A DNA stretch of 64,000 nucleotides from a virus (lineage: Duplodnaviria > Heunggongvirae > Uroviricota > Caudoviricetes): the IMG/VR virus record IMGVR_UViG_3300042554_002914. One strand, written 5' to 3'. This document shows positions 19,924 to 41,530 of this stretch, in pieces. Numbering within the stretch: position 1 is the stretch's first letter; the number at the start of each line of letters is the position of its first letter. The notes under the pieces are model-generated. The model made no database searches. It worked only from the letters and a program-made list of their open reading frames with translations, and had not been told where the DNA came from. The translations under genes were made by a program, and so were the position numbers.

Positions 19924-21336
19924 TCAGGTAACGATGGGTAGTAGTTGACTGTAGCTAACTAAGATTGCACACATGGTATCGGACGGGGGCCCCAATGGAA
20001 TCTGGGGGTCATCACATCTATTCAAAGTGCTTTGGATATTAGGATTGGAAGATTTCACTCTCCCTGAGTCTAGCATATGGGAGATAACGTTTAATGTGGG
20101 TTGTCTCGGCTTGCTACCTACGCAAACGTTTAACCCTAAGCCCTGTAGGTACACAGTCCAAGCTGCACTTACCATGGCGGATTCAAGTACAATTTCTTCC
20201 GCTTCGTATGCCTTAACTGCTAGGCTTAGGATTACTCCGACAGTTTTCAAGTCCCAATTGCCTTCGTAAGTGTCAAGGACATACATGTAGTCCCTTTTCT
20301 TTGTAACCCCTGCGATGCAAATACCTGTTTTATCAATGCTGCCGGCACTGAAAGCAGGATCAACAGAAATAATTACTTTATCTAATGGGGGGATTTTCGG
20401 TGTCGGTGAGCATCCCTTATAGAGCCAGGAGAACTTTTCATCGCCGATATTCCTTCTAATATGGTTCAGATTTTCGGGGGACCAGTAGGAATTGATTCTA
20501 CTCAAGGTTTCCCCTACATTCCTACCAAGAATGTCAGCCTCTGCCTCTTCTTTACTTTCGATAATTGCTGACAAATTAATGTGGACGGCTCCTTTCGGGT
20601 TTGATACGGGGTCGAAAACACCGAATTTATCTAAGAAGTAGCCGAAAATGTCTTCATCGCCCCATCTTGACCCAAAAACAACTATGGCACTGTTTTGGTG
20701 GCGCCGGGTCATAATTTCCTTTTCTATCCAGTCTTTATTTACTGTCATATTTGAGGACTTGTGATAGTCATCGATTAACCAAACCCCTGGTACCCCGTTG
20801 GGTCCACCCCAAGGTGAACGATACCCGTGCGTACGCCAGGGGATGTTAGCCGATGTTACGCTATCAGCCCGCAAATCAAGTTTTGAAAACAATTCCTCAA
20901 AAGGAAAGGCACTAACCAACTGCTTAACTCTACTTACTGCTAAGTCGGTGATACCCCCATTGTAAGAAGTTACGAAATGGTTAGTATCAGGATCTTTCCC
21001 CAGGAGCCAAGACAGAAATAGGGAGCCCAATGTAGACTTCCCAGTACGAGGAGGCATCGATACTAAGAGGATTGGGTACCTGCCTTCGGCAATGTCTTCA
21101 AAGGCGGACCCCAAGACTTCATAAGTTTCCCAATTTAGCAAGGAGTCTGTGCCTTCCGTGGCGCGAGACAAATAGCAAGGGAAACTATATTGGGCGCACT
21201 CTTTAATGTAGTCATTAATTATTTCCTTAGTCGCGCCTCTCATTTCAAGTTCAAGAAGTCCCCTCCTATACTTTCTCCAGCTTGAATGTTCCGATAGCTG
21301 GGAAGCGTGTGTTATTTTCGGGTGTTTTGGTGTCAT
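19924..21336 (-). CDS. Large terminase subunit paralogue 2 (diverged)
   Basis: Walker A MPPRTGKS, Walker B WLIDD, GSRW motif, SVDPAFS nuclease start; N-terminus homologous to 21422..23152. Confidence 0.8.
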   Translation of the reverse strand: MTPKHPKITHASQLSEHSSWRKYRRGLLELEMRGATKEIINDYIKECAQYSFPCYLSRATEGTDSLLNWETYEVLGSAFEDIAEGRYPILLVSMPPRTGKSTLGSLFLSWLLGKDPDTNHFVTSYNGGITDLAVSRVKQLVSAFPFEELFSKLDLRADSVTSANIPWRTHGYRSPWGGPNGVPGVWLIDDYHKSSNMTVNKDWIEKEIMTRRHQNSAIVVFGSRWGDEDIFGYFLDKFGVFDPVSNPKGAVHINLSAIIESKEEAEADILGRNVGETLSRINSYWSPENLNHIRRNIGDEKFSWLYKGCSPTPKIPPLDKVIISVDPAFSAGSIDKTGICIAGVTKKRDYMYVLDTYEGNWDLKTVGVILSLAVKAYEAEEIVLESAMVSAAWTVYLQGLGLNVCVGSKPRQPTLNVISHMLDSGRVKSSNPNIQSTLNRCDDPQIPLGPPSDTMCAILVSYSQLLPIVT

Positions 21337-21350
21337 TTTAGTTAAGATTT

Positions 21351-21385
21351 TGTTGGCTTGTGTTGGCTTGTGTTGGCTTGTGTTG
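21351..21385. repeat. 10-nt tandem repeat TGTTGGCTTG x3.5
   Basis: Read directly in the spacer between the two terminase genes. Confidence 0.9.
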
Positions 21386-21421
21386 ATTTTTGGTTTGCTC
21401 TAGGACTTTTTTTACCTGGGG

Positions 21422-23152
21422 TCAGAGCGATAACCCATAACCAGTGTCATCCCTATTGAGGCGAGGTCTGGAAAAAGACTCTGGACCGATAAAACCAGAA
21501 CCAGAATCTAAATTATTGTAAAGTCCAGCCGAAGGTAAATTCCTCCCTACTCTACCAGTAGGTAAATTTGAATTACCCAAGAATGGCCTTCTGTTTCCTC
21601 CGCTCCACCTCCTCGCTTGTATTATAGCATCTTGTATCCCACGGTCAACGGTGTCTAGCTTCATCGCATAGTACGTCAGGGACCACACAAACGCATCCAC
21701 CGAGTCATCGTGCTTAACGAAGGGGAATCCTGTTAGCTCCTTAATAAAACTATCTACCCATAACCCCTCAACAAGTTTAACCCTGTCATTCTCTAAGAGT
21801 GGGCAAACAGCTTCGAGTCTAACCGTTTTTGACCTAAGGGGTCTCATTTCTTCTACAGGTATTTTTGTTTCCCGTCTCAACATTTGTATCAAAGATTGGC
21901 CGGATGCTGCCTTTTCGATACAGATTACTTTTGGTTTGTAGAAGGAATGTAGTTGCTTAATAGAGGCAATCAAGTCCGGGAAGCCCCATCTCCCTTTAAC
22001 GATTTCCCTAATGTAAACAGTTCTGGGATCTCTAGTCGAAATTCCAGCCACACAGACCGCAGTTTCGTCTGCACCTTCTTTTTCAGAAAACGCACAGTCT
22101 ACACCCAGCCATACTACATCTAGTGGTGGGCACTTTTTTTCTTCTACCATGGCGATCCATCCGGCCTTTACAATTTGACCTTCTGCTGCAGTTGGAGTTC
22201 CCTGATAAAGGGCCGCAAATTTGGAACTGCCCATAGTTTTCTTTTGGGCCTCCAGCATATCAATCGAGAATGCCGGGTTATCAGGCCAATGGGACTCACC
22301 GATTTGCCTGCCTAAGGGGTCATCGACGGGGTCTTCACACAGGCCCGCAATATTCACCCATCTCCAACCTTCCGGGTTTTCTTCCTCATCATAGCTGCCG
22401 TCCGATTCTAAAACCTGGCCATGCAAATCATTGGCATGAAACCTGGTCGCAATAATTAGACGGCAATAATTGTTAGTTTTACGTGTCGATGCCTCTTCTT
22501 GCCACCACGTTTGGAGACTCTCAAAAGCCCTGGCAGAAGCTGAGCTTTTCAGTGGGTCGTCGATTACCATGGCCCCCACACCTGGGCTAATAATGTTTAC
22601 AGACCCTGCCGTATGGCCAGTCAACACACCACCGACAGAAGTAGGCAGGATGTATCCGCCACTAAGCATCTCAAATTTAGAATCCTTGGCAAAACCTTTC
22701 CAATCGGGGAAGATTTTCTTAAAGACAGGTGTCTTCAACATGCCGATAACTTCCTTATGGAACTTATTGGACAGTGATAAACCATAAGAGGCAATAACGT
22801 GTTGAGTTTCTTGATCTCTCCCTAGTAACCAAGCCACAAACATTGATGCCAGCATTGATTTACCAGATCGAGGAGGACAGGATACGATCAAGTTATGGTA
22901 GCGTTTATTTGCTAGATCCTCAAAACCACTGGCAATAATTTCATGGAAATCCGCGACCTTTAACGCACCACCCTTCATTAAGTCTGCAAAAGCCAGGAAA
23001 CAATACCTAGAAGACTCAAACATGTAGTTCTGAATGACAGAGTTTGGTGCTTCTAAGACATTAAGATGATGTAAACCCCTAATGTAATGGCGCCATGAGC
23101 TGTGCTCATCTAGTTGACTAGCGTGGTTTATTATCGGCCGTGGGAGTGTCAT
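21422..23152 (-). CDS. terL: Large terminase subunit
   Basis: CPPRSGKS, VIDDPLK, ATRFH, LYQGTP, GVDCA, IEKAASG, FPFVKHDDSVDA. Confidence 0.93.
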   Translation of the reverse strand: MTLPRPIINHASQLDEHSSWRHYIRGLHHLNVLEAPNSVIQNYMFESSRYCFLAFADLMKGGALKVADFHEIIASGFEDLANKRYHNLIVSCPPRSGKSMLASMFVAWLLGRDQETQHVIASYGLSLSNKFHKEVIGMLKTPVFKKIFPDWKGFAKDSKFEMLSGGYILPTSVGGVLTGHTAGSVNIISPGVGAMVIDDPLKSSASARAFESLQTWWQEEASTRKTNNYCRLIIATRFHANDLHGQVLESDGSYDEEENPEGWRWVNIAGLCEDPVDDPLGRQIGESHWPDNPAFSIDMLEAQKKTMGSSKFAALYQGTPTAAEGQIVKAGWIAMVEEKKCPPLDVVWLGVDCAFSEKEGADETAVCVAGISTRDPRTVYIREIVKGRWGFPDLIASIKQLHSFYKPKVICIEKAASGQSLIQMLRRETKIPVEEMRPLRSKTVRLEAVCPLLENDRVKLVEGLWVDSFIKELTGFPFVKHDDSVDAFVWSLTYYAMKLDTVDRGIQDAIIQARRWSGGNRRPFLGNSNLPTGRVGRNLPSAGLYNNLDSGSGFIGPESFSRPRLNRDDTGYGLSL

Positions 23153-36761: not shown

Positions 36762-39700
36762 TCAGGACAAGATGTTGGTGATCATAGCGCCAGAACCGAT
36801 AAGACCAGATGCACCGAGGCCAACCAAGTTAACCACACGTTCGATGGTGATTTCAGCACGCACGACACGGCGTTCGCGAATGTAGTACTCCAATTTGTTA
36901 TCGTAAAGGCTCTTTATCCTCTACATCTTTGTATTTCTACAAAGTTCAGACTATATCTTTGCCTTACATCCTTATGTAAGACATTAGGCGCTCGTGGAGT
37001 TTTCATCTGTTCTAGATTACTAACTCTAGTCGTTGAACGTTCGTTTTCTCCCGAAAACGCTTCGCTGCTGATTGCCATGGTTTGAAGTTCAAACGTTAGG
37101 GTCCCAGCAATTCACCTAATTTCTTTTTATGTCAGACCCCAGTAGTTAAGGACGGACAGCGGGTGTTCCTGTGAGTTGATCATTTTTGTTAGCGTAAAGG
37201 TTATTTATCCTTCACTTCTTTACATTTCTGCAAAGATCAGACTATATCTTCTTCCTGAAATTTCTTATCAATCCGGTAACATGACTATCAGGTAGATTTA
37301 AGTGTCGTGCGAACTTGCGAATTGCTGGTTTACCCAGCTCTACCCAAAGTTCAAACAATTCATCAAACCTAGACCATAACTCTTTTCTCGATCTGGGGTT
37401 ATTTATTCCCCTTACCTTTAGAGACAAGGTTTTCGAGATTTTCAGTTTATGCTCTTCAGTCATTTTTCTACCAGTCCAGGGATGATTTGACTTATCCTTG
37501 AAATGATTTTTATGCCAGTCACTGTTTTTTCTTTTAGCTTCTTCTGAGCTTCCTAATTTGGGGGAAATTAAACTAATCTCCCTTGAACCTAGCCCCCATT
37601 GTTTTGAACTTTTCCAAATTGCCCACCATAATTTTTTATTATGGGGTTGGGATAAACTTAAAAGTAAATGGGCTATGTAGTGTTCTCTCCGGGTCAGCAT
37701 TACTAGGTTTGATACTTCATCATTCCCTCCACAACAAATAGGAATAATGTGATGTTTTTCAAGCCCATTTTTGCTTCCCCTTCGTTTGGGGATTGGCCGA
37801 AGTAAAAGTAAACGTGATGTGATAAGATTCCAATACCACTTTTCCCATTTATTAAGAAAGTGACATTCTATCAGGAGTGGGGCACTCGTGGATGGGTTAT
37901 TATTTTCGGTATTCACCATCTAGTCGTTGAACCTTTTGACTACAACTCTATTATAGCATAGAGTCCGAAATAGTCAACTTGGCTGCTGATTACCATAGCT
38001 TTCAAACTTTCGTTTGAAGCCGTAGGCTTCCCAGCAATTCACCCCATTGATCTGCGGATCAGGCAGATAATTTGACGTTACCGTCAAACCACGCATTCAA
38101 CTCGTTTAAAAGAAACGATGTTATTAACATACGTGTAACTGAAGGCCGGAGTCGCAGCATTAGCACCACCCGCAGGCATGATCGAATCAGAAGGGCCGTT
38201 GGGGCTGTAGAACAGGAGGATGCCATTGGCGGGGAAGACAGGCTGCAAGGAGCCGTCGTTGGCCAAATAACGCCCTTCAGCTACGCGCAGGCCACGCTCA
38301 AGACCGAAGTAGCGAGCGATGACATCTGTGTCGATGCTATTGGCGGAGGTGTACTTGATACGATCAAGGATCGCTTCGTTGGTCAGCAAGAGGTCGAAAA
38401 CCGAAGTTCCAAGAACAGCGGAGTTCGGACGAATGCCGATCTGGTTGGCAACAGCACGCTTCAGGGTCAGGATGTCCTCAATGGGATTAGAGGTTGCACC
38501 AGACCATGCGGCAGGGCCAGTGGCTGTGCCATAAGCGGTGTTGAAGGCGGTCCAGGTTGTAAAACCAAGACCAGTTTGTGAGCCAGGAGTCCCATTGTAG
38601 GGCTCGTATGGATTGTAGCTGCCAGTCACTGAAACAGCTTGAGCAACGGTGTACTCGTAGCTGTTCATTCATTATGTTATCGCGAGGGCTCTTTATCCCT
38701 TGCTTCTGCATGTTTCTATGCAGTTCAGACTATATCATCGTTTTGTAAACAAAACGTCAGGCGCTCGTGTCAGCTTCATTACTGTTCTAGTAGTATGCTG
38801 TTAGTCGTTGAACGTTCCGTCAATCCCTTGACGGCTTCGCTGCTGATTACCATAGCATCAAACTTTCGTTTGAAACCGTAGGTTTCCCAGCAATTCACCC
38901 AATTTTCTAAATGAGATTAATCTCATAGGGCCAATGTGTTTAGCCTAGACATCGCGTTGCGAGTCTCGATGGCGCGTAGCATTTGTTAACTCAGCGGCTC
39001 TTTATCCACTGATTCATTACCTTGTCGTTGGTAATGTTCAGACTATATTATTGCCCCACTATGTACACGATTACTGTACTTTGTAAGACATTGGGCGCTC
39101 GTGTCAGCTTCATTACTGTTCTAGTAGTATGCTGTTAGTCGTTGAACGTTCCGTCAATCCCTTGACGGCTTCGCTGCTGATTGCCCACGCGGGGGTTCCA
39201 GCAATTCACCCAATTTATAGTGGACCTACGCTGCGATCGAAATCGTTCGTAAAAAATAATCCACTTGTGCAGGACCTTCTCCTGCGTTTTCGATTCAATA
39301 ATGTTATCGCAAAGATTTTATTCTATGCTTCTTTACATTTCTGTAAAGTTCAGACTATATCTTCACCCCTGTTTTTCTTTCTTAGCTTAGCCATATGCTC
39401 ACGGGCAATCTGCCTATGGGTTTCAGACTTTTCTTTATCCGCCCAGTACTTTTTGGCGGACTCACTTCTCTTTTCCTTTTCCTCTTCAGTTTGAACCCTT
39501 CCTCTATTAGCTTCGTGAGCTTTTTTAAGTGTTTTTTCGGGCAGGGATTTACCCATCTTGGTTTTACTAAGTCTTTCTCGCATTTGCTTGGACTTAGGTC
39601 TTCCTTTCTCGGCTGCCCCCGGGGCAATACCGAATGAGGTCTTTTGTAGGGAAGTAGCTAAAATAGATGTACGTGGTCGGTAGGTAATGGCGCCTTCTCC

Positions 39701-41530
39701 GCATTTAACTCCCAACATCCTTCTAACTGCATACCAGTGTTTTACTGAGTTAGCACCTTTCGCAAGGAGGACATGGGCTATGAAGTGTTCTCGGATTGTT
39801 AGTTTTACTCTGTTTCCTTTGGAGTTATCCCCACCGTCACACTTAGGTATGATGTGATGGACGTGGTATCCCCTTTCCTTGGAGATTCCTCTATACTTCC
39901 TGGAGGAGCAGAGTTCGTGGTACCATTTTAACCATTTGTTAGGGTGCTGGGCGCTCGTGGATGGGTTATTATTTTCGGTATTCACCATCTAGTCGTTGAA
40001 CCTTTTGACTACAACTCTATTATAGCATAGAGTCCGAAATAGTCAACTTGGCTGCTGATTGCCTTGTGTTTCAGAGAAGTCACTCCTGAAACCGTCAGGG
40101 TTCCCAGCAATTCACCCAGTTTTTCTATCAGTTTTTCAACTGACGGAGGCTATCGATCTAACCTCTTCAGGCAATTCCCAAGCCACTACTTCTTGTTCAA
40201 GAGCGTAGGGCTCAGAGTCGTAACGGCTCTGTACATACGGAATGTTAGTCCCGTAAGCACGGCGGAAGTCGTTAATAGCAAATTGTTCCTTCAATTATGT
40301 TATCGCAGGGGCTCTTTATCCCCCACTTCTCTTTGTTTCCAAAGAGTTCAGACTATATCATCGTTTTGTAAACAAAACGTCAGGCGCTCGTGGAGTTTTC
40401 ATCTGTTCTAGATTACTAACTCTAGTCGTTGAACGTTCCGTCAATCCCTTGACGGCTTCGCTGCTGATTACCATAGCATCAAACTTTCGTTTGAAGCCGT
40501 AGGCTTCCCAGCAATTCACCCAATTTTTCATAACCCCTCACGGAGTTAAGCGGCATATGGAATACCGAAGCGCAGGATACGTCCTGCACGAGTTGGCGTG
40601 TCTACCACCGGTGCTATGAATAATATACAAAACTTAACGTTTTGCTCTGCATGTTTCCATGCAGTTTAGACTATATCATCATCTTTGCCTAAGCAAAGAG
40701 TCGGGCGCTCGTGGAAAGATTATTCTTGGGTCAGTCACTTTCTAGTCGTTGAACCTTCTTACTTCACTCTTATTATAGCAACAAGAGACCCGAAGTAAAC
40801 TTGGCTGCTGATTGCCTCTTTTGCGTAGCAAAAGTAAGGTGTCCCAGCAGTTCACCCGATTATTCGACAGGGGTCACCCCCTGAAGGAACCTCATTGATT
40901 CGCAATGTTGGTAGACGGTAGCATGAAACCTTGCGCGAGGGTGGTGAGACATTTGTTAACGTAGAGGCTCTTTATTCCCTACCTCTCTTTGTTTCCAAAG
41001 AGTTCAGACTATATCATCGTTTTGTAAACAAAACGCCCGGCGCTCGTGGAGTTTTCATCTGTTCTAGATTACTAACTCTAGTCGTTGAACCTTCCTTTTC
41101 TCCCGAAAAGGCTTGGCTGCTGATTACCATAGCTTTCAAACTTTCGTTTGAAGCCGTAGGCTTCCCAGCAATTCACCGGATTTTCTTTGTTAAAAACAAA
41201 GCCACTCCTTTAAATGGGCAATATGTTATCGCAAAGGCTCTTTATCCCTTGCTTCTACATGTTTCCATGTAGGCCAGACTATATCATCATCCTATAACTC
41301 CCATGCTGAGGAGTCAAGGAGCTGGGCGCTCGTGGAGTTTTCATCTGTTCTAGATTACTAACTCTAGTCGTTGAACGTTCCGTCAATCCCTTGACGGCTT
41401 CGCTGCTGATTGCCTCTTTTGCATAGCAAAAGTAAGGTGTCCCAGCAATTCACCCAGTTTTCTGCCATCATTAAAATGACAGGGACCCTAATTAATCCAC
41501 ACCTGCGTAGGTCTGTTGTAGATTCATCAT
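36762..41530 (-). CDS. Major capsid protein, 351 aa, in 10 exons: 41530-41495, 41218-41214, 40949-40898, 40620-40564, 40291-40161, 39295-39259, 38979-38942, 38669-38131, 37180-37149, 36890-36762
   Basis: Exon lengths 36+5+52+57+131+37+38+539+32+129 = 1056 nt = 351 codons plus stop, with no internal stops: MMNLQQTYAGVDPILTTLAQGFMLPSTNIANFIAPVVDTPTRAGRILRFGKEQFAINDFRRAYGTNIPYVQSRYDSEPYALEQEVVAWELPEEVIENAGEGPAQVDLRAIETRNAMSRLMNSYEY...AFSYTYQLTGTPAVRPEYYIRERRVVRAEITIERVVNLVGLGASGLIGSGAMITNILS. VDPILT..A.G, FGKE.F and W....SNPIEDI...K....IGIRPN match capsid proteins of this type. The gene lies downstream of the portal, protease and decoration genes. Confidence 0.9.
36891..37148 (-). mobile_element. 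Group I intron 9 (258 nt)
   Basis: Core elements; P1 UCCU with GGGG; P10 UACU with AGUA; terminal G. Confidence 0.9.
37242..37919 (-). CDS. Intron-encoded HNH homing endonuclease with NUMOD3-like motif
   Basis: EKHHIIPICCGGNDEVSNLVMLTRREHYIAH; HPWTGRKMTEEHKLKISK; stop TAG lies within GAUAUAG. Confidence 0.88.
   Translation of the reverse strand: MVNTENNNPSTSAPLLIECHFLNKWEKWYWNLITSRLLLLRPIPKRRGSKNGLEKHHIIPICCGGNDEVSNLVMLTRREHYIAHLLLSLSQPHNKKLWWAIWKSSKQWGLGSREISLISPKLGSSEEAKRKNSDWHKNHFKDKSNHPWTGRKMTEEHKLKISKTLSLKVRGINNPRSRKELWSRFDELFELWVELGKPAIRKFARHLNLPDSHVTGLIRNFRKKI
37950..37977 (-). promoter_or_regulatory. Sigma70-type promoter inside intron 8 for the HNH gene
   Basis: TTGACT-N16-TATAAT with extended -10 (TGC TATAAT), 30 nt upstream of ATG 37919. 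Confidence 0.7.
38670..38941 (-). mobile_element. Group I intron 7 (272 nt)
   Basis: P1 GGCU with GGCC; P10 CAUU with AAUG; terminal G; splits a Leu codon CT|A. Confidence 0.9.
38980..39258 (-). mobile_element. Group I intron 6 (279 nt)
   Basis: P1 GUGGAU with GUCCAC; P10 GCGUAG with CUACGC; terminal G. Confidence 0.9.
39350..39988 (-). CDS. Intron-encoded HNH homing endonuclease with NUMOD3-like repeats
   Basis: HVHHIIPKCDGGDNSKGNRVKLTIREHFIAH; basic repeats (KSKQMRERLSK, GRVQTEEEKEKRSES); stop lies within the GAUAUAGUCUGA core element. Confidence 0.88.
   Translation of the reverse strand: MVNTENNNPSTSAQHPNKWLKWYHELCSSRKYRGISKERGYHVHHIIPKCDGGDNSKGNRVKLTIREHFIAHVLLAKGANSVKHWYAVRRMLGVKCGEGAITYRPRTSILATSLQKTSFGIAPGAAEKGRPKSKQMRERLSKTKMGKSLPEKTLKKAHEANRGRVQTEEEKEKRSESAKKYWADKEKSETHRQIAREHMAKLRKKNRGEDIV
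40019..40046 (-). promoter_or_regulatory. Sigma70-type promoter inside intron 5 for the HNH gene
   Basis: Identical TTGACT-N16-TATAAT, 30 nt upstream of ATG 39988. Confidence 0.7.
40292..40563 (-). mobile_element. Group I intron 4 (272 nt)
   Basis: Core elements; P1 CGGU with GCCG; UUCC can pair with 3' exon GGAA; terminal G. Confidence 0.9.
40621..40897 (-). mobile_element. Group I intron 3 (277 nt), terminal nucleotide A
   Basis: Core elements present; P1 GAAU with GUUC; P10 AUGAG with exon UUCAU. Confidence 0.85.
40950..41213 (-). mobile_element. Group I intron 2 (264 nt)
   Basis: Same core elements; P1 CCAU with GUGG; terminal G; splits an Ile codon AT|T. Confidence 0.88.
41219..41494 (-). 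mobile_element. Group I intron 1 of capsid gene (276 nt)
   Basis: Core elements GAAUUGCUGGGA, AAUCAGCAGC, GUUCAACGACUAG, GAUAUAGUCU; P1 exon GGAU with GUCC (U.G at the splice site); terminal G. Confidence 0.9.

Follow-up and report, generated by a model that had tools for sequence, protein, structure and literature searches.

A group I intron whose last base is A in the major capsid protein gene of a Caudoviricetes virus

Results

The capsid gene and its nine introns

The window, a 64,000-nt stretch of DNA that forms part of a 103-kb IMG/VR virus record (IMGVR_UViG_3300042554_002914, Caudoviricetes), carries a major capsid protein gene that is interrupted by nine group I introns. The subject of this report is the third of these, called hereafter intron 3, whose last base is A. 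The gene model and the intron boundaries were rebuilt from protein colinearity, and the features are collected in Table 1. Throughout, a caret marks a splice junction.

The ten exons measure, in order, 36, 5, 52, 57, 131, 37, 38, 539, 32 and 129 nt. Exon 8, the largest of the gene, matches Pfam Phage_cap_E, and the spliced product can be aligned colinearly, at 68% identity, with its nearest annotated relative, the capsid protein of Synechococcus phage S-CBWM1 (major capsid protein). Rfam RF00028 gave eight matches above threshold, together with split halves of two introns bearing an open reading frame (ORF), which makes nine introns. Introns 5 and 8 each encode an HNH protein. Rfam's own alignment of P1 and of the 3' end was rejected for these introns, as the model wrongly stops at the G after P9. 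An intron-free capsid copy of the same coding length (1056 nt) was available on contig L027 (IMGVR_UViG_3300012770_000549), which comes from another sample than the window; the spliced coding sequence aligns to it without gaps, and all eight sister junctions agree.

Table 1. Positions of the capsid gene, of intron 3 and of its structural elements in the window
Feature	Position	Strand	Description
Major capsid protein gene	36762..41530	minus	10 exons and 9 group I introns; spliced product of 351 amino acids
Exon 2	41214-41218	minus	5 nt, CCCAU, between introns 1 and 2
Exon 3	40898..40949	minus	52 nt, ends ...AUU GCG AAU (I A N)
Intron 3	40621..40897	minus	group I, 277 nt, no ORF, last base A at 40621
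Internal guide	40887..40897	minus	CAAUGAG-GUUC, partner strands of P1 and P10
P1	40891-40887 (guide strand)	minus	GGUUC with exon GAAU and intron C1; U-G wobble at the splice site
P10	40897-40891 (guide strand), 40614..40620 (3' exon)	minus	CAAUGAG with UUCAUAG; 6 of 7 pairs
TTTACT-N16-TATAAT	40772..40799	minus	in the P6 extension; read from sequence
R element	40741..40754	minus	GUUCAACGACUAGA; P7 5' strand GACUA (40747-40743); identical in G-ending orthologs
S element	40669..40677	minus	GAUAUAGUC; P7 3' strand UAGUC (40673-40669); G-binding G-C pair unchanged
Second base after P7	40667	minus	A, only in intron 3; G in 87 of 88 family variants
P9 hairpin	40647..40664	minus	CUGCAUG-GAAA-CAUGCAG
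Terminal hairpin	40627..40645	minus	GCAAAAC-GUUAA-GUUUUGU, in place of the GAUAAAGAGC-loop hairpin
Tail	40621..40626	minus	single-stranded AUAUUA, ends in the terminal A; no UAACA...UG tail
Exon 4	40564..40620	minus	57 nt, FIAPVVDTPTRAGRILRFG
Sister tails (examples)	40292-40303, 38670-38680	minus	introns 1, 2, 4-9; single-stranded

Boundaries of intron 3

The first base of intron 3 is a C (40897), which follows exon ...GCGAAU, and its 3' end reads ...GUUUUGUAUAUUA (...UAUAUUA), followed by exon UUCAUAGCA (UUC AUA GCA). At the same site the intron-free L027 copy reads GCGAAT^TTCATAGCA. Since the first intron base is C and the 3' exon begins with T, while the last intron base is A and the 5' exon ends with T, the boundary cannot slide. 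The last base of intron 3 is therefore A, as had been read in a first-pass annotation made by a model from the sequence alone. Excision of the intron restores the host reading frame and joins the residues IAN^FIAP, which are kept in S-CBWM1, in S-TIM5 and in about 80 relatives. The annotation had also warned of a frame shift if the nearest G, 7 nt upstream, were used; splicing at this G (40628) was computed to give a stop after 52 codons.

Besides the reading frame (AN^FIAP), the annotation had relied on a 5-bp P10 (AUGAG with UUCAU) to place the splice site after the A. This helix is present, extends beyond the five pairs (Table 1) and covaries among orthologs, and the same site is indicated by P1 and by the intron-free copy. 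Duplex energies were -3.4 kcal/mol for P1 and -2.9 kcal/mol for P10, compared with -0.6 and +0.6 in a model where both sites are shifted by 7 nt. The P1 pairing is identical in orthologs inserted at the same site. Six types of guide and exon occur among these same-site introns. At position 3 of P10, four of them have an A-U pair, and the clade of intron 3 and L051 a G-C pair; at position 6, three types have G-C, L048 has A-U, and both the clade of intron 3 and L051 are mismatched. Two positions of P10 are thus compensatory among same-site orthologs, a covariation which implies that G-ending and A-ending introns use the same register. As predicted pairings, P1 and P10 together fix both splice sites of intron 3. 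The idea that P10 is specially strong in intron 3 was dropped, because by eye introns 5, 6 and 8 likewise have 5–6 bp.

Sister introns and same-site introns end in G

All eight sister introns of the gene end in G. Their 3' ends consist of a hairpin with a GAUAAAGAGC-type loop, then a conserved tail, G-NUAACA-(N)n-UG^. In-frame stops lie within the tail of introns 4 and 7, which makes the tail intronic. The annotation had let the sisters end at a G after the hairpin, but their true ends are located some 10–12 nt further on; it was right that intron 3 lacks the usual hairpin. Another hairpin stands in its place (Table 1). In a family survey of 80 related loci, 85 of 95 distinct S-element contexts were followed by the UAACA...UG tail. 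No consistent partner for this tail was found by eye in J2/3, P2 or P7.1.

Junctions were then checked against intron-free proteins. The checker left split codons unverified and 40 of 63 variants (62 once a duplicate had been merged) gave several shifted solutions, so that the result is limited to "compatible with G" for the 61 of 62 variants that admit a G-ending solution, and to "unambiguous G" for 22 of them. Only the intron 3 type admits no such solution. An apparent non-G case, intron 8 of L014, was due to a missing reference peptide and is no real exception.

Introns at the same site were found in related lake cyanophage contigs (L017, the L019 group, L042, L045, L048, L050 and L051). 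They are 262–964 nt long and all end in UG^. They share with intron 3 the insertion site (AAU^UUY), the guide GGUUC and P7, and the one in L017 has the same P3/P8 type. What sets them apart from intron 3 is that the GAUAAAGAGC-type hairpin, the UAACA...UG tail and the terminal G are all retained, and that the base matching 40667 is G. An ORF of some 0.7 kb, lost from intron 3, is present in several of the long ones; as the same-site orthologs of 938–964 nt still bear it, intron 3 looks like an ORF-loss derivative.

The ribozyme core is intact

The RF00028 score of intron 3 was 94.3 bits (cut-off 50, model positions 1–253), the second best of the nine introns. The annotation had described P7 (GACUA with UAGUC) as standard, and it is indeed identical to that of the sister introns: the sequences GUUCAACGACUA and GAUAUAGUC of the R and S elements are the same in G-ending paralogs and orthologs. 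About 30 nt between GACUA and ACGAGCGCC form an insertion in the Rfam alignment; introns of the phage-type subgroup IA have the additional helices P7.1/P7.2 between P7 and the 3' strand of P3. The intron DNA is similar to that of introns from Clostridium, Streptococcus and Staphylococcus phages, and by these comparisons the core appears phage IA-like. Immediately after AUAGUC, 87 variants read UG and intron 3 alone reads UA, while five further contexts, which belong to a different intron type, read CG. The A of this UA (40667) is the sole other core-adjacent change that is unique to intron 3.

The same A is found in five contigs

The same intron with the same terminal A occurs in four more contigs from other metagenomes (L014, L015, L029 and L047). 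The five A-bearing contigs show synonymous differences in exon 4, which mark them as separate variants, and about 1% divergence in exon 8. The recurrence of the A in all five indicates that it is not a sequencing error. A search of IMG/VR and of the JGI metagenome collection with a variable-gap pattern returned the same contigs only, and no G-ending or other tail variant of the 3' end of intron 3.

The L014 record (G001), a genome of 279 kb that has terminal repeats and is 100% complete, carries intron 3 in its one capsid gene copy. As the gene is the sole capsid gene and is heavily expressed, intron 3 must work. Among the five contigs, intron 3 differs at 0–2 of its 277 positions, a low divergence that matches exons about 1% apart. 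Since it is the neighbouring introns that stand out, we do not claim any additional constraint on intron 3.

Contigs that look like processed transcripts

Contig L029 (also L100; 127 kb, sample 3300027763, Ga0209088_10000023) contains intron 3 and seven other introns. L027 (5.8 kb) is 100% identical to it over the 4186-nt upstream flank and every exon (5.2 kb), and is devoid of all eight introns. L103 is identical to L027. A third form is found on L105 and L106, the same molecule with only intron 2 kept (L105:51-312), as an exact copy of intron 2 of L029; intron 1 and introns 3 onward are gone. At site 3, L027 and L102–L104 all have the junction GCGAAT^TTCATAGC. The Logan contig L104 is identical to none of the compared genomes and so does not provide a second pair of genome and transcript. 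The last 95 nt of L027 repeat part of exon 8, and this end looks chimeric.

The protein of L027 was also found on short contigs of samples 3300012770, 3300012772 and 3300012777 and in the Logan assembly of SRR5839259, and an N-terminally shortened form of it in samples 3300012758 and 3300012761. Samples 3300012758–3300012777 are presumably lake metatranscriptomes; a literature search turned up no paper that names them. Pre-mRNA and mRNA are the simplest explanation for three otherwise identical forms, the two processed ones of which are confined to short contigs from one sample series. The intron-free and the intron-2-only contigs are thus probably mRNA, and L027 is likely a spliced polycistronic late mRNA that entered IMG/VR as a "viral genome fragment". 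If these contigs are mRNA, intron 3 is excised exactly at the A in vivo, and it is intron 2, placed after the 5-nt exon, that lags, whereas intron 3 does not. The annotation had suggested that intron 3 may be the slow, rate-limiting step; L105 and L106, the sole partly processed capsid contigs found, have lost intron 3 and yet keep intron 2, and argue weakly against it.

Discussion

Probable excision at a terminal A

Taken as a whole, these comparisons make it highly probable that intron 3 is a real and functional group I intron of the phage's only capsid gene, that its last base is A, and that it is excised exactly there. The most likely mechanism would be the ordinary group I pathway, with a poorly bound terminal A as the leaving group. 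The 5' splice site follows the U of GAAU, in its wobble pair with the guide GGUUC, and because P7 is unchanged the first step should still use free guanosine. P10 brings the phosphate after A 40621 next to the end of the 5' exon. In the second step, the terminal A would sit poorly in the ordinary G pocket, and the 3' splice site would then be held mainly by P10 and by a short contact resembling P9.0. We place base 40667 by analogy with what we take to be its counterpart, G313 of Tetrahymena, in which case it would pair with the base before the terminal one. The latter is U in the sisters (G-U with a 40667-type G), C in one other intron type (G-C) and U here (A-U), so that the G to A change at 40667 would turn a G-U into a firmer A-U contact. 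Exon ligation would be fast enough in vivo for capsid production, and the spliced RNA is expected to read GCGAAU^UUCAUAGC.

A bolder version, which we regard as doubtful, holds that the two G to A changes, at the last base and at 40667, form a minimal natural recipe by which an unchanged pocket could ligate exons efficiently in the absence of a terminal G. The 3' site would be chosen by P10 and P9.0 pairing, and the speed would be about that of the G-ending sisters; such a speed is hinted at by the contigs that keep intron 2 and not intron 3.

Several points weigh against excision at the A by the pathway described. Given that the changes are one-sided (G-U, G-C, A-U), the link between 40667 and the terminal A via a P9.0-like contact is at most suggestive; a second P9.0 pair was considered and rejected, since many sister introns do not preserve it (tails AAUG and AGUG versus GAA in J7/9). 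Alternatively, 40667 may lie opposite the C before GACUA, and the change would then create a mismatch adjoining the G pocket. Work on the G414A mutant of Tetrahymena, by Price and Cech in 1988 and by Been and Perrotta in 1991, reportedly leads one to expect that a terminal A facing a G-C pocket impairs ligation strongly. Finally, it is conceivable that the intron-free contigs are DNA variants.

This last point is the starting point of another explanation, in which intron 3 is splicing-defective, the capsid allele is dead, and the intron-free contigs are DNA of a separate, intron-less strain. Presence and absence of introns at the DNA level is indeed common among more distant relatives. However, the complete genome has one capsid gene, the allele is found in five assemblies that are about 1% apart in exon 8, and L027, though devoid of eight introns, matches L029 at 100% identity over 5.2 kb; the third form, with only intron 2, is moreover hard to explain by DNA alleles. 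We consider a dead allele improbable. Less far-fetched, though still unlikely in our opinion, is that splicing of intron 3 at the A depends on help from an RNA chaperone or a protein of phage or host, and that the naked RNA would stall after the first step; a protein cofactor had been the second suggestion of the annotation. Poor docking of the terminal A is expected with the G-binding pair unchanged, introns 5 and 8 of the same gene encode two HNH proteins, and a hexacoral intron with a terminal A has been discussed as host-dependent (PMC3679873). On the other hand, the analysis brought up no candidate maturase, and intron 3 has an intact core, P1 and P10. HNH endonucleases are not known to be maturases. 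In addition, an intron lacking the terminal G in the 23S rRNA of Coxiella burnetii, Cbu.L1917, is called self-splicing in the title of Raghavan et al. 2007 (J Bacteriol 189:6572, cited in PMC3428280).

Other splice sites were also considered. If both sites lay 7 nt upstream (5' after U 40905, 3' after G 40628), the intron would have canonical ends, with U before the 5' site and G before the 3' site, and frame and length would be kept in a protein reading ...STNIILFIAP.... But in such a register there is neither a P1 (-0.6 kcal/mol, no U-G wobble) nor a P10 (+0.6), the newly intronic UGCGAAU is identical to the intron-free exon and encodes the conserved A-N, and same-site orthologs use the register of GAAU with GGUUC. 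Its predicted junction, AACAU^UAUAUUAUUC, is present in no contig, whereas L027 and L102–L104 have the one given above. The use of the next in-frame G (40609, ...UUCAUAGCACCG^GUG) would give the junction GCGAAU^GUGGUAGAC and delete the residues FIAP, but the motif F-I/F-A/G-P is kept in every relative, even the distant S-TIM5, P10 does not pair there, and the intron-free contigs retain FIAP. Both displaced sites are very improbable. As for an error of sequencing or assembly, which the annotation had left as an alternative, the tail UAUAUUA does resemble the end of intron 1, CAUAUUG, and the true base might have been a G, as in a tail ...AUAUUG. The same A in five independent contigs from five sample assemblies, with no G variant in IMG/VR or the JGI metagenomes, refutes this for all practical purposes.

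Relation to known introns

The terminal G, near-universal but not strictly defining for group I introns, is absent from intron 3. It is not obligatory, as illustrated by Cbu.L1917 and by the hexacoral mitochondrial intron ND5-717, which ends in A and whose exons are perfectly ligated in vivo (PMC8146996, PMC6545197). The annotation had correctly presented terminal-A exceptions as rare and published, and had missed the bacterial precedent. ND5-717 and intron 3 have the terminal A in common, but the former is organellar, obligatory, vertically inherited and giant, with genes in P8 and a reduced splicing efficiency, whereas intron 3 is 277 nt long, is present in some relatives and absent from others, and has eight similar introns beside it in the same gene. 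Cbu.L1917 is, like intron 3, a group I intron of the bacterial world without the canonical terminal G, and in both cases a very short exon separates it from a neighbouring intron (34 bp at Cbu.L1917, 5 nt and 52 nt in the phage gene). It differs in being inserted in rRNA, and is described as being of another subgroup (IB2/IA3 pair, PMC10136302); intron 3, for its part, has G-ending same-site orthologs and an intron-free copy that allow direct comparison. Homology of intron 3 to either of them is unlikely, in view of the different host genes and subgroups.

A closer parallel in gene architecture is orf142 of Staphylococcus phage Twort, with three introns and a 23-nt exon (PMC10136302). Both are cases of several similar IA-type introns in one structural or late phage gene with very short exons, with three introns in Twort and nine in the window, one of which ends in A. 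None of the orf142 introns is known to lack the terminal G. An engineered Tetrahymena ribozyme (G264A:C311U with a terminal A; Michel 1989, Been and Perrotta 1991) is reported to use its terminal A for exon ligation, the binding pair having become A-U. In intron 3, by contrast, the pair stays G-C, and therefore the solution of a re-specified pocket is not the one it uses. A literature search brought up no description of a cyanophage capsid gene that contains many introns.

In group I splicing, the terminal G is regarded as indispensable to the second step. Intron 3 joins a small, already published class of exceptions; the novelty is modest and, such exceptions being published, the textbook picture is unchanged. 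Natural exceptions reveal to what extent the choice of the 3' site by the ribozyme can depend on other contacts, and this one is naturally well controlled, with G-ending relatives at the same site, eight G-ending sisters in the same transcript and an identical core. It offers a compact test case, being small and without an ORF, with one other core-adjacent base changed, in a single capsid gene.

Variation among the other introns

Introns 1, 2 and 4 differ much more than intron 3 between the window and L014, L029 and L047 (9–25 differences each, with exons about 1% apart). The pattern is consistent with look-alike introns often swapping blocks, and with intron 3, whose periphery is unique, being less involved. 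Intron content varies as well between genomes whose capsid proteins are 99% identical. L029 has an additional intron (L029:4201-4460) within what is exon 5 of the window, at coding position 193, and is without introns 8 and 9. G001 gave 17 RF00028 matches, of which about 14 are in the capsid region (72235–77911), more introns than in the window; three lie in another gene near 20–21 kb (20378–21454).

Copies with an intron at site 3 have GCGAAT before the site, and most intron-free relatives have GCCAAC, with C in place of the U of P1. Exon sequence and intron presence thus seem to go together, either by co-conversion or through a requirement for the U. In some relatives, another, shorter intron type of 215 nt (L019:4286-4500, L022, L039, L042; S element AGAUAGUCCGACAC, ending in ACAUAUUG^) is inserted 18 nt upstream of site 3, so that two introns are separated by an exon of 18 nt (UCCACCAACAUUGCGAAU).

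The HNH ORFs of introns 8 (37245–37919) and 5 (39353–39988), both on the minus strand, begin directly after the P7 strand. They share their first 13 residues (MVNTENNNPSTSA) and are divergent beyond. Ahead of both HNH genes, at the place matching the TTTACT-N16-TATAAT of intron 3, is a TTGACT-N16-TATAAT.

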